The notes below the pieces were generated by a model that saw only the letters and a list, made by a program, of their open reading frames with translations, was not told the origin of the DNA and made no database searches. Positions 44,541 through 51,200 of a stretch of DNA of 64,000 nucleotides are shown here, in pieces. A program made the position numbers and the translations under genes. Source of the DNA: Eledone cirrhosa (lineage: Eukaryota); assembly GCA_964016885.1 (NCBI GenBank), contig OZ024742.1, positions 267,158,001 to 267,222,000 on the forward strand, in the 5' to 3' direction. Numbering within the stretch: the stretch's first letter is position 1; each line of letters begins with the position of its first letter.

Positions 44541-44962
44541 GTAGGAGGTGAGTTTTATTGTAGTACAATAAAGCAATGCAGATATTGGATAAGAAACACT
44601 CTACAGTTTGTAGGACTGGAGTATACATAATATATAAGAACAAAAGATGGTTAAAAGAGTTCCATGTATTTTATTATGCGCATTTCAAAAAAAAATATCA
44701 TCATGCAATAATATTTGTTTTCATCAGATAAAACAGGAAGACATGATATGAAGGTTAAAAAACACTTGTGGATAGTGCAGTTTTAAATCAACATATGATA
44801 TGTTGATTTAAAACTGCACTATCCACAAGTGTTTTTTAACCTTCATATCATGTCTTCCTGTTTTATCTGATGAAAACACAAATATTATTGCATGATGATA
44901 TTTGTTTTTGAAATGCGCATAATAAAATACATGGAACTCTTTTAACCATCTTTTGTTCTTAT
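44541..44962. mobile_element. Foldback hammerhead element, family K, copy 1
   Basis: Arms 44632-44796 and 44799-44962 meet at TCAACATATGATATGTTGA; (TA)n on both sides. Confidence 0.9.
44861..44927 (+). ncRNA. Type I hammerhead, family K (mirror copy 44669-44733 on minus)
   Basis: TTTTAT-CTGATGA-AAACACAAATATTAT...GATATTTGTTTTT-GAAA-TGCGCA (palindrome)-TA-ATAAAA. Confidence 0.85.
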
Positions 44963-45185
44963 ATATATATATATATATATATATATATAAATATATATAT
45001 ATATATATATATATATATATATATATATATATAAATATATATATATATAAATATATATTTATTTATATATATATAAATATATATATATATATATATAAAT
45101 AAATATATACATATATATGAATAAATATATACACATGGTGAACTAACTGTTGTGTAACCACTTATATATATATATATATATATTT

Positions 45186-45765
45186 CTAGGGCGGGTAAAA
45201 TTCCCTAGATCCATGGACGAGTTCTCTCCAGCGGTCTCTGTCCCTCATTATCGCTGCCATGTCCTGCGTCTCCATCAGACTAGTGTCTGTCCTTAGGGCA
45301 TCAACACATGTTAACCTTGGTCTTCCTCTTCCAGTGTGTCCATGTAGGGGCTCCCACAGGAGCACTGAGTGTAATGTCAACTCTGGTTGTCGGTGAGCAT
45401 GTCCAGCTAACCTCAATCTCCTCTGTGTCACTTTTGAGCTGACTTTTGGGAGGCTCCCATACAGCTCTGAGTTTTCATGCTCAGTGTATACTGAGTAATG
45501 TTCAGAGCCATCCTCAGCATTCTTGTGTAGCACCCATCCACCATCTGAGTGAGTTTCTTGGTCAGTGTCCAAGTCTCTGACCCGTACAGCAGCACAGACT
45601 CCACTACAGCAATGAAGAGGCGGATTTTCAGGTCTTTACGAAGTTTCGACTTCCACACCGATATCAAGCTGCGGCACGCCGCCCAGGATGTTCTCTTCCT
45701 CTCAACCACATTATCTTTCGTATTCCCAATCCTTGCTCCCAAATACAGGAAGTCCTCAAGCAATT
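45186..45765 (-). mobile_element. 5'-truncated RTE-clade LINE
   Basis: DFLYLG, VESVLLYGSETW, DGCYTRMLR, RRLRLAGH, GRPRLT; between (TA)n tracts. Confidence 0.9.
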
Positions 45766-45824
45766 CTATACATTTATATATATATATTTATATATATATA
45801 TAAATGTATATATATATATATATT

Positions 45825-47205
45825 TTGAGTTTATGTTGGTTGTATACCAACACCTCAGTATGCAGGCTGGAGCACTCGACGAAGTGCGCAGGTTGGTTTG
45901 GTTACTCCGGTGTAGTGTAAAATAAAGTTAAATAAAAGTCAAATGATTAAAATTTAGCTTCGTTTATTACTGCTATATATATTTCAGTGACAGCCAATAT
46001 ATATTTCAGTGAACTCCCCTCAAGCCACAGGGAACAACCCAGGCGGAGCAGACACCATGATAGCCTAGAGATAGAATCGGACACAGCCATAATAATTTGG
46101 CCAACATCTATAACACAAACACTTTTAATTTACCAGATTTCTGACTTTCAAGTTCCAATCTTAAATCTTGATTTCTCTTTAATAATTTCTTATTTGTTTT
46201 CTGCCCTCTTCACTGTATCACCTTATATTTATTTTAAGTTGAGATAGATTATAAACAAACACATTGAATATCTCATCTTAACATCTTGTATCATACCAAT
46301 CTATCCAACATATTCTGACCTTGAGATTGGTTATAGCACACACACACACACTTTATCCTACATTATTTCTCACTTCTCCATATACATTATCATTACTTTT
46401 TCACCAATCTCTCATTTACTCTTTATTCTTTATTCTCTATTTATTTATTTATTTTCAAATTACACAAATTATATTAATTATTTTATTTTTTTATATTATT
46501 TATTTATTTTCTGTTTTCTTCATTTATTGCATTATATTTCTTCATATACATGAAAGAACCCCCCCCCCCCACCACCACCACCACCACTACGATGGTGGCG
46601 GGAGGGATGAAGAAAAAACACAAACTGGATACTTCTAAATTGTTAGCAGCAGCAAGATATAAGCTGACCACTACAACAACAACAGTACCAAAATAATGGT
46701 GGAGGTCAAATGTACTGAACAATAGCAGGCAAAAACACTACAGGGAGCCTCACCCCAGAAAGAATTCTATAGACTTCTGACTGAGGAATGCTCTCAGAAC
46801 TGAACAATGGGAAGTTTGACACTTTTTTGTTATTTTGTTCCTTTAACACCTTGTCCCTTCTACCATTTTATCAATTTTTAAGCTAACTCCAACAATAACA
46901 ACACTTAGAATGAGGAATGTTCTAATAACTGACCAATGAGAGGAGAAGGGGACCTGTGACACGAAAATTCGTTTGTTTGAATTCATATGACTCCAGTTCC
47001 CCAGTGAATTAACAACCCAACAAGGAACTGGGCGTATCAGAGTATTGACAATAGCATACACCTAGACAACATATGTACTTGTCTATACCATACTAATTCA
47101 AACTGCCTGAAGAGGTCACAGCCAAAGATGGCTGTCAAATATATATAGCAGTAATAAACGAAGCTAAATTTTAATCATTTGACTTTTATTTAACTTTATT
47201 TTATA
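45825..47205. mobile_element. Family D element, copy 2: inverted partial arm (45825-45997) and direct arm (46830-47205) around an 830-bp spacer
   Basis: Both arms match 6690-7138; the hammerhead at 47102-47152 has a 4-nt deletion removing the G of GAAA. Confidence 0.8.
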
Positions 47206-47244
47206 TATATATATATATATATATATATATATATATATATATAT

Positions 47245-47990
47245 ATATAAGAGTAATATATATGAGTAATATATATGATGAAACAGATACCAACACATCT
47301 GTATTTATATTGCAAAAGAAAATTAGCCAGAATGAAGAATATTAATTATTTTACTACAGTTCGTCCACATCGATTTAAAATAATAAATCGACAAAAACTA
47401 GCTGCGCTGCCAAAAGGCTATGATGTTTATACACATTTAAATTTCAAAATCAAACCTGTTCCGTAGATAAGTTTAAACACTAAAATCCAAACATGTTTCG
47501 AGATGAATAAGTGTATAAGTGTAGGAAATCTTGCCACTGCTCTCCTCAGTAAACATCCAGAGACAATTGATAAGCTTCACTTCTAAATAATTTAAAAGAC
47601 TGTGTGACGCACATGGGTTCACAGATTCAAGCCAGTCTCATAACCGTACTGCTAGAAATAACAGTCGTATATATGAGGCGAATTTCAGCTCAGCCAGGAG
47701 CAGTTATATATTATTAAGTGTAATGAATTCTTTTACAATGGAATTAGCTCAAAAGGAAATATTCCTGAGCCGTGTATAAGAGTAATATATATGAGTAATA
47801 TATATGATGAAACAGATACCAACACATCTGTATTTATATTGCAAAAGAAAATTAGCCAGAATGAAGAATATTAATTATTTTACTACAGTTCGTCCACATC
47901 GATTTAAAATAATAAATCGACAAAAACTAGCTGCGCTGCCAAAAGGCCTGTTCCATTGTAAAATAATTCATTACACTTAATAATATATAT
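47245..47990 (-). mobile_element. Hammerhead-containing unit of about 530 bp with terminal direct repeat and short 5' inversion, family L
   Basis: 47245-47417 repeated at 47775-47947; 47705-47742 inverted at 47951-47988. Confidence 0.7.
47485..47554 (-). ncRNA. Type I hammerhead, family L
   Basis: GTTTA-CTGAGGA-GAG...CTC-GAAA-CATG (palindrome)-TT-TGGAT (stem I with G-U pairs). Confidence 0.65.
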
Positions 47991-49317: not shown

Positions 49318-49336
49318 ATATATATACATATATACT

Positions 49337-49705
49337 ATGGTGGATGGGTGCTACACGAGAATGCTGAGGATGGCTCTGAACATTAATCAGTATACACTGA
49401 GGATGAAAAACTCAGAGCTGTATGGGAGCATCCCAAAAGTCAGCTCAAAAGTGACACAGAGGAGACTGAGGTTGGCTGGACATGCTCACCGACATCCAGA
49501 GTTGACATTGCACTCAGTGCTCCTTTGGGAGCCCCTACATGGACACACTAGAAGAGGAAGACCAAGGTTAACATATGTTGATGCCCTAAGGACAGACACT
49601 AGCCTGTTGGAGATGCAGGATATGGCAGCGATAATGAGGGACAGAGACCGCTGGAGAGAACTCGTCCATGGATCTCGGGAATTTTACCCGCCTTAGATAC
49701 TAGTA
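49337..49705 (+). mobile_element. 5'-truncated RTE-clade LINE, same family as 45186-45765
   Basis: MVDGCYTRMLRMALN...GSREFYPP* nearly identical to the other copy. Confidence 0.9.
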
Positions 49706-49837
49706 ATATATATATATATATATATATATATATATATATATATATATATATAATTACACACACACACACACACACACACACACACACACACACACATATA
49801 TATATATATATATATATATATATATATATATATATAT

Positions 49838-50572
49838 TTCGTTTCTGAATTTGTTTAGCAAGATTCTTTATCTGAAATCGTGTGTTGAAACCGATATTGT
49901 TATACTTTGGGAGGGTCATGTTGCCAATAAGAAACACACGCACCAGATGCTTTCACTTCAATTTATTATATATTTATAAATTTATAAATTTACAAATTTA
50001 CAAAACTATAAATTTCTGGTTGGTTTGTTGGTTCCACAACCAGATAGTTGTTTATATATAGTCATAGTCCTTTCGTCACACACTCTGTGACCTCTTCATT
50101 GACTGGGGATTCCTTTCTTCGTTTCTGTGCCTTTCCTTTCTTCTGAAAACACACACAGGACAAAATGAAAACACACACACACATAGAACAAACAACCAAC
50201 CAACAATAAATAAATAAATTAATAAACAAATAGATAAATGAACAGAAACACACACAGACACCCGGATGTGGCGCATGCGCAAACTGAGCACACAACACAC
50301 ACACAGAAACAAAATGGCGTAGGATAGAAGAAAGGAAAGGCACAGAAACGAAGAAAGGAATCCCCAGTCACTGAAGAGGTCACAGAGTGTGTGACGAAAG
50401 GACTATGACTATATATAAACAACTATCTGGTTGTGGAACCAACCAACCAACCAGAAATTTATAGGTTTGTAAATTTGTAAATTTATAAATTTATAAATAT
50501 ATAATAAATTGAAGTGAAGCCACTGGTGCGTGTGTTTCTTATTGGCAACATGACCCTCCCAAAGTATAACAA
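49838..50572. mobile_element. Foldback hammerhead element, family M
   Basis: Arms about 49896-50142 and 50328-50572 with a 185-bp spacer; (TA)n on both sides. Confidence 0.85.
50366..50410 (+). ncRNA. Minimal type I hammerhead, family M (mirror 50060-50104 has core ATGAAGA)
   Basis: AGTCA-CTGAAGA-G-GTCAC AGAGTGT GTGAC-GAAA-GGAC-TA-TGACT. Confidence 0.8.
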
Positions 50573-50760
50573 TATATATATATACTTATATATATATAAA
50601 TATATATATATACCTATATATATATATATGTATATAAAAATATCTATATATGTATATATATATATATATATATATATATATATATATATATATATAATAT
50701 ATATATATATATATATATATATATATATATATATATATATATATATATATACTTATATAT

Positions 50761-51200
50761 GTAGGAGGTGAGTTTTATTGTAGTACAATAAAGCAATGCA
50801 GATTTCGGATAAGAAGCACTCTACAGTTTGTAGGACTGGAGTATACATAATATATAAGAACAAAATATATTTAAAAGAGTTCCATGTATTTTATTATGCG
50901 CATTTCAAAAACAAAAACAAATATCATCATGCAATAATATTTGTGTTTTCATCAGATAAAACAGGAAGACATGATATGAAGATTAAAAACACTTGTGGAT
51001 AGTTCAGTTTTAAATCAACATATATGTTGATTTAAAACTGAACTATCCACAAGTGTTTTTTAATCTTCATATCATGTCTTCCTGTTTTATCTGATGAAAA
51101 CACAAATATTATTGCATGATGATATTTGTTTTTGAAATGCGCATAATAAAATACATGGAACTCTTTTAACTATCTTTTGTTCTTATATATTATATACTTA
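50761..51200. mobile_element. Foldback hammerhead element, family K, copy 2 (hammerheads 50889-50961 minus, 51085-51151 plus)
   Basis: Same left end GTAGGAGGTGAG and same centre TCAACATATATGTTGA as copy 1. Confidence 0.9.

Follow-up and report, generated by a model that had tools for sequence, protein, structure and literature searches.

Two palindromes in the 64,000-nucleotide stretch of the Eledone cirrhosa genome analysed here (contig OZ024742.1, positions 267,158,001 to 267,222,000; the window) raise the question of how a palindrome can recur with one left end and one fold position. Both were confirmed as inverted repeats, at 44540-44966 (copy A) and 50760-51193 (copy B). Judged from their sequence, they are head-to-head pieces of the pseudo-long terminal repeat (pLTR) of a Penelope-like element (PLE), a retrotransposon with Hydra-clade motifs and a unit of about 3.3 kb. 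The initial annotation had offered two origins: a hairpin that is itself mobile, or an RNA whose 5' end is fixed, where complementary DNA (cDNA) snaps back. An RNA with a fixed end at (A)TATGTTGATTT was retained as the best reading of the data, which are DNA data only. The palindromes were probably formed by two cDNAs that started from two fixed priming sites on a single capped RNA, ran off its start and were joined. The two window copies are likely to be ordinary, inert insertions.

Positions in the pLTR were numbered from the A of ATATGTTG (+1), set against natural parent copies. On this scale the hammerhead motif occupies +64 to +130 with a predicted cut after +124, a short end lies at about +172 (BLAST extends it to +177 within TA) and the tail ends at +259, with the body beyond. 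The parent copy L061 consists of an inverted arm, the pLTR with its tail, a 738-aa frame with reverse transcriptase (RT) and endonuclease motifs that is terminated by a frameshift, and a 3' pLTR. The RT motifs FDIASYY and YRDDG were found in 32 and 29 copies, respectively, together with the endonuclease motif IYECK..YFGST..FKARLYNH. The GIY-YIG motif was identified by eye, a regular expression having matched nothing; its core has one cysteine only, with no CCHH cysteine pair, which fits the Hydra clade. Atlas look-alikes of the parent frame scored 0.94-0.96, with HTH_animal, GIY-YIG and RVT_1 on part of the members. Pfam and PDB sequence searches with the same frame gave no significant match.

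The element has the features of endonuclease-positive (EN+) PLEs: a partial-tandem pLTR, an inverted 5'-truncated copy, a one-sided tail, one open reading frame (ORF) that carries a PLE-type RT and also a GIY-YIG endonuclease at its C terminus and, as a motif, a hammerhead in the pLTR. The inverted copy and the one-sided tail belong to PLEs in general (PMC8557442). Assignment to the Hydra clade is by motifs, namely SDKT (30 of 35 copies), the linker as CNCPIKNKC (11) or CNCRIKNKC (3), CxxC before E as CNLCLNE (24) and CxH after N as NRRTDLFSICLH (21), to which the clade trait of insertion into (TA)n is added. The RWK position reads LRWIA in 16 copies, LRWTA in 16 and LRWKA in one. Residues about 590-670 of the frame (L061:1586-3799), between the RT thumb and the cysteine linker, are rich in Asn, Thr and Ser and recall the Asn-rich inserts of Adineta Penelope ORFs (PMC3846280). 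An origin of the tail end by poly(A) cleavage, despite an AATAAA 13 nt upstream, was considered and not adopted because 23 of 128 tail ends retain the next templated T and a second family lacks the signal. In copy A the AATAAA lies at 44553-44558 (minus strand), and the tail end finishes in CA.

At first look, 1,652 candidates were found in the genome (3.0 Gb). An unbiased sample was taken as the first 100 of 1,350 exact matches to a 27-mer inside the arm, giving 77 loci. The 23 loci with two matches were all head to head and so lack the arrangement of non-LTR retrozymes, in which hammerhead-bearing units follow one another head to tail in tandem. Spacings were 112-129 bases in 12 loci, 78 in one and 277-5,680 in ten, the long ones holding the RT-endonuclease frame. 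When the unbiased set was pooled with the 29 best BLAST matches, 40 loci selected for G before +1 and the window, one short-site arm was paired with one tail-site arm in 89 of 90 pairs. The 29 best matches are biased to the centre of copy A and were left out of the centre spectrum and of the counts of arms stopping at or passing +1.

The fold is concentrated at +1. Genome-wide, 1,799 palindromes are centred there and 23 at the natural palindrome TGCGCA. Among unbiased arms reaching +53 (n = 116), 50 stopped at +1 to +3, 22 at +4 to +53, and 44 passed. The first 50 centres comprised 23 ATAT, six ATATAT, nine ATAT-G/C-ATAT, one ATAT-A/T-ATAT, two ATATCATGATAT and nine others. Taken with the 1,799 folds against 23, this spectrum shows that centres are neither random nor invariant, so that the strict invariance for which the initial annotation had suggested a check does not hold. 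A second family with hammerheads (3,747 exact matches; window 6300-7041, 45780-47205 and 58540-58725, and loci L260-L309) likewise has short and tail arms, with head-to-head spacings peaking at 228-245; its inner ends also pile up, at TCATATG. Separately, in L184, L197, L199 and ten stub pairs the inner ends cluster at +155 to +181, the TA-rich short priming site; cDNA collision, insertion into the element's own pLTR and plain microhomology are alternative explanations of this cluster.

The arms of a pair share their alleles. The +20 allele was common to both arms in 84 of 89 pairs (expected proportion 0.59), and the two arms of a pair differed by 2.2 changes per 149 nt, against 6-7 between pairs; the within-pair value was identical for tight palindromes and for arms 0.08-5.5 kb apart (2.2 in each). 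The comparison of arm identity within and between copies therefore supports one template for both arms, as had been suggested. The accompanying suggestion that the arms were homogenised was not upheld because 43 of 45 locus-private changes sit in a single arm and only two in both. In nine of 64 unbiased pairs the tail arm begins past the end of the short arm and has no base in common with it, and therefore neither arm copies the other. The arms also stop or pass together: in the unbiased sample both stopped at +1 in 13 pairs and both passed in 13 by script (15 after re-pairing of L061 and L080 by hand), with no mixed pair (p = 3e-8). Where the partner was cut within the shared range, the complete arm was the short one in 29 cases and the tail arm in eight, counts pooled from three samples of which two were selected on the base at -1.

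Under the proposed mechanism both strands of a (TA)n target would be cut, and each would prime the copying of one RNA in a single insertion event, at the two fixed sites of about +172 and +259. Both cDNAs would run off the predicted capped RNA start at +1, and their ends would be joined by an ATAT overlap (4 or 2 nt), by a blunt jump or with filler. The resulting stub would be a dead-end product, made anew from the RNA of each subfamily. Position +1, in the context TC-A-TATG, would be a capped start of RNA polymerase II; we take the TCATAT of the pLTR start to resemble an initiator. Two priming events on one RNA would fit the arms without overlap, the stop/pass rule and the ratio of 29 to 8. 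A PLE protein is described as cutting and extending both strands, with two internal RNA start sites that bound the tail (PMC11167929), and Penelope transcription as starting in the pLTR (PMC2377424, PMC8557442).

A G at -1 may be the copied cap; an extra G from the cap is described on full-length L1 insertions (PMC11702581). The parent base at -1 is C, with at least 2,343 exact matches in parent context. Otherwise +1 was preceded by G in 2,329 arms, by A or T in 2,417 (A making up 25 of the first 100) and by non-parent C in 1,952, the last mostly an ATAT overlap counted twice. None of 47 G-led arms from 40 loci, three of which were chosen for having two G arms, carried the parent upstream sequence. 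Non-symmetric junctions (n = 60, from contig C1 up to 117 Mb, with all G and A/T matches and part of the C matches) had G in 21, T in 22 (including about ten (TA)n joins and one mis-sorted parent copy), A in 13 and C in four (G versus A, p = 0.0007). Single-base centres were G/C in nine cases and A/T in one. In the second family, the first 100 of 561 non-C arms had G in 32, A in 13 and T in 55. At L171 (G000:C1:108427428-108430259) both arms start with G at +1 and are separated by about 1.8 kb of ORF-derived sequence. Junctions in L116, L149, L153, L154, L219, L244 and L090 carry 1-3 tandem repeats of the arm's first 8-16 bases (GATATGTT, GTTGATTTAAAACT), a pattern suggestive of a cDNA end realigned on the RNA start and extended again; fill-in by polymerase theta is an alternative.

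Several observations weigh against one capped RNA as the common template or against the cap as the source of the G. Of the 21 G junctions, nine match the next bases of the partner arm and four are short duplications of the first bases, leaving only eight otherwise unexplained; in the second family three of the four examined match the partner arm. Single untemplated fills were G in two cases, A in three and T in three. The strongest microhomology near the centre, GATATG at +52, would yield a G without a cap, and a central G can be read as the parent C at -1 of the other arm. No TATA box was seen by eye at -30. The shared alleles are no proof of one RNA molecule, as subfamilies may have acted in turn. 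Whole-unit arms that enter the upstream pLTR (28 arms classified in 30 loci of the 195 exact tail-body junctions found genome-wide, L207 being counted as passing) reached +1 in 17 cases and stopped there in none, against 50 of 94 terminal arms (p = 2e-5). This result is not what capped full-length RNA of one class would predict; it seems, therefore, that the long copies derive from a template that does not end at +1, whether read-through RNA, a circular form or a strand jump.

The family might draw on templates of two sorts. As a tentative possibility, a capped linear RNA with one inactive hammerhead would give strong-stop stubs, and a template endless at +1 would give the long and tandem copies; the latter would be either a unit-length circle formed through dimeric hammerheads or a retrovirus-like strong-stop jump to the downstream pLTR. 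If true, this would account for the joint stopping and passing and for the absence of whole-unit stops, as well as for arms that start at the ribozyme cut (L202, L084), and it would give PLE hammerheads a job.

The window copies can be read on the same scale. They share the left end TGTAGGAGG and, as had been claimed, fold at one parent position; the letters of the centre differ. In copy A the tail arm (44540-44796, minus strand) runs from +1 at 44796 to the tail end, +259, at 44540, outward into (TA)n. Its outer 87 nt (44540-44626, minus strand; +173 to +259) occur in this arm only and in parents continue into the 5' body and the ORF. A lone G at 44797 (plus strand), putatively copied from the RNA cap, separates it (ATAT-G-ATAT) from the short arm (44798-44966, plus strand), which extends from +1 to about +169 and then into (TA)n. 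In copy B the tail arm occupies 50760-51023 (minus strand; +1 at 51023, tail 50760-50846) and the short arm 51022-51193 (plus strand; +1 to about +172, then (TA)n); the centre ATATAT (51020-51025) is an AT overlap of the two +1 ends. Both copies are thus lopsided, the left arm exceeding the right by the 87-nt tail. The mirrored difference CTGCAC/CTGAAC noted earlier is present, as is a further one, AACC/AATC. Among 180 arms the mirrored base was A in 46 and C in 130, which makes it a common subfamily allele and not a private change; copies A and B belong to different subfamilies.

Fold-back, the snap-back of the initial annotation, would let one cDNA reach a fixed 5' end and copy itself, or an antisense RNA prime itself (PMC3846280), with later deletions making the lopsided copies. 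It would account for the shared alleles and the stop-together rule, and perfect palindromes make up 31 of the first 50 centres (the 23 ATAT, six ATATAT and two ATATCATGATAT); back-copying of a tail-first strand as far as the TA-rich +172 site would also give one short and one tail arm. Such a strand, however, cannot make the short arm exceed the tail arm in length, which is the common case (29 against 8), and a short-first strand cannot produce the tail. ATAT-G-ATAT (nine of 50) has no room for a loop, the extra G is located on the sense strand, and lopsided copies are not measurably older (0.98 against 0.76 rare changes per arm, p = 0.46, a weak test). With the nine of 64 pairs lacking overlap, these points make fold-back unlikely as a general route. 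An origin without any fixed RNA end, in which cDNAs anneal at the natural hexamer CATATG and the G comes from nearby microhomology, is suggested by the commonest centre, exactly CATATG (23 of 50), by the fold of the second family, TCATATGA, and by the occasional use of natural palindromes at -47 and +117. Yet TGCGCA, which all arms reaching +1 cross, holds 23 centres against about 830 (23/50 of 1,799) at CATATG, with a search pattern 6 nt longer than that for +1, and stops at +1 also occur where arms are joined to flank or to unrelated partner parts; annealing of this kind is very unlikely.

We give scarcely any credence to the hairpin as a non-autonomous mobile unit, whether copied whole or through a tail arm that is internally promoted and seeds palindromes. 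The presence of some 1,800 symmetric copies whose outer ends are fixed would suit it, an internal promoter is known in Penelope (PMC2377424), and the 195 exact tail-body junctions are few as possible coding sources. Against it, a transcript of the palindrome would be a 170-bp duplex, centre forms are many, vary by subfamily and are scattered across haplotypes, and parent-type arms and long parent copies occur in the main haplotypes, those of both window copies among them. The inherited fixed internal sequence and separate clade of a MITE-like self-mobile hairpin were not found. A stub-only lineage was rejected likewise: the +26T allele, the sole one tested genome-wide, has 737 parent-type arms among 1,997. 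Local duplication or an assembly artefact might be suspected from the 6 kb between copies A and B and from the proneness of palindromes to mis-polishing, and is extremely improbable. The copies are 94.5% alike, and the similarity ends at the element borders, with (TA)n flanks and unrelated DNA outside; the 39 best other matches of copy A are closer (96-98%), lie on many contigs and do not include copy B. The 43 of 45 private differences confined to single arms also tell against this reading, as do read-derived contigs, where loose (TA)n ends occur at each of the outer ends (the sample of run X1 may be that of the assembly itself). Contigs of two read runs compared with the parent copy showed no strand-change joint, and such contigs cannot show starts; a single X4 contig with its loose end exactly at +1 is too slight a basis to count.

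The cores (CTGATGA, GAAA, TA) of the four hammerhead motifs are intact, and the motifs are of the minimal type I with stem III TGCGCA. The claim of four intact ribozymes holds for these cores and goes no further. The motifs stand one per strand, so that any one transcript has a single sense ribozyme, and both left-arm motifs carry indels in stem II: in copy A (44670-44733, minus strand) stem II is shortened and the predicted structure lacks the hammerhead fold, and in copy B (50889-50961, minus strand) it has a 6-nt duplication. The right motifs lie at 44861-44927 (plus strand; dimer-type stem III, predicted cut after 44921) and 51085-51151 (plus strand; predicted cut after 51145). None of the four folded better than shuffles (z -0.86, 0.20, -0.86, -0.60), and an Rfam scan of the window gave no match at gathering scores. 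The hairpin itself, at -267.7 kcal/mol (z -39.6), is stable far past chance, and RNA transcribed across the palindrome is predicted to form one long hairpin with a 170-bp duplex. The proposed built-in off switch is thus sound thermodynamically for a read-through transcript, and nothing shows its use; masking of the ribozyme in the stub is predicted to be a by-product. A few arms (L202, L084) begin at or next to +125, the predicted cut, a placement that AT-rich microhomology may also explain. The cut was rejected as the fold point, the whole surrounding region having 85 centres against 1,799 at +1.

Elsewhere in the window, three more inverted hammerhead pairs of other families lie in (TA)n (21754-22432, 50007-50577 and 58835-59776), the second of them adjoining copy B. 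Between copies A and B are older inverted fragments of another, unrelated repeat, about 84% alike (45188-45770 and 49337-49700).

The thousands of young stubs are a record of the PLE insertion reaction. They yield predictions of the exact base at which the transcript starts, of a capped sense template, of two fixed sites of priming and of which arm tends to be complete. PMC8557442 describes the origin of inverted repeats and one-sided tails in PLEs as undefined, and the choice between sense and antisense template is left open in PMC3846280; the fixed fold and the pairing rules make this question of PLE insertion testable. Head-to-head pLTRs with a one-sided tail have already been published for PLEs (PMC8557442, PMC3846280, PMC4209133), and the papers searched contain neither the G-marked fixed fold nor the pairing rules. 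No paper on a cap mark, a strong stop or twin priming in PLEs was found, where subscription journals (including PLE reviews of 2005-2006) and some supplements may bear on novelty.

The element shares with the Hydra clade (Craig et al. 2021, PMC8557442) the single RT-linker-endonuclease frame, DKT, the CxCx5C linker, CxxC before E, CxH after N, the pLTR hammerhead and (TA)n targets. It differs in having RWI or RWT for RWK in 32 of 33 copies, a unit of about 3.3 kb where the clade generally stays below 3 kb, and a tail of 87 nt where 30-40 is typical; the accessible text of that paper describes no fixed inversion point. The inverted-pLTR insertions of Penelope in Adineta vaga (Arkhipova et al. 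2013, PMC3846280) have in common head-to-head pLTRs, junction palindromes, a tail on one side and an initiator-like motif in the pLTR. They are few, against thousands here, and antisense self-priming was proposed for them with the question left open, whereas the present junctions point to two primings on sense RNA. The PAc Poseidon protein in vitro (Frangieh et al. 2024, PMC11167929) also cuts and extends both target strands and has two internal RT starts, with uncleaved RNA as its main template; it belongs to another clade, and the available portion of the report describes no palindromic product or cap run-off. The minimal PLE hammerheads (Cervera and De la Pena 2014, PMC4209133) share the type I core, the long stem II and the palindromic, dimer-requiring stem III. 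Motif pairs on opposite strands 100-700 bp apart were already noted in that work, the accessible sections of which report no fixed centre or cap mark. In L1 twin priming (PMC11702581) the second target strand likewise primes on the same RNA and an extra G marks the cap; there the arms adjoin, overlapping little, and the second site varies, whereas here both sites are fixed and about 170 nt are duplicated. Non-LTR retrozymes (bioRxiv 10.64898/2026.07.22.740005) are similarly short, non-coding, PLE-derived and equipped with a type I hammerhead, but they are head-to-tail tandems, whereas the present copies are head-to-head stubs with a coding parent.

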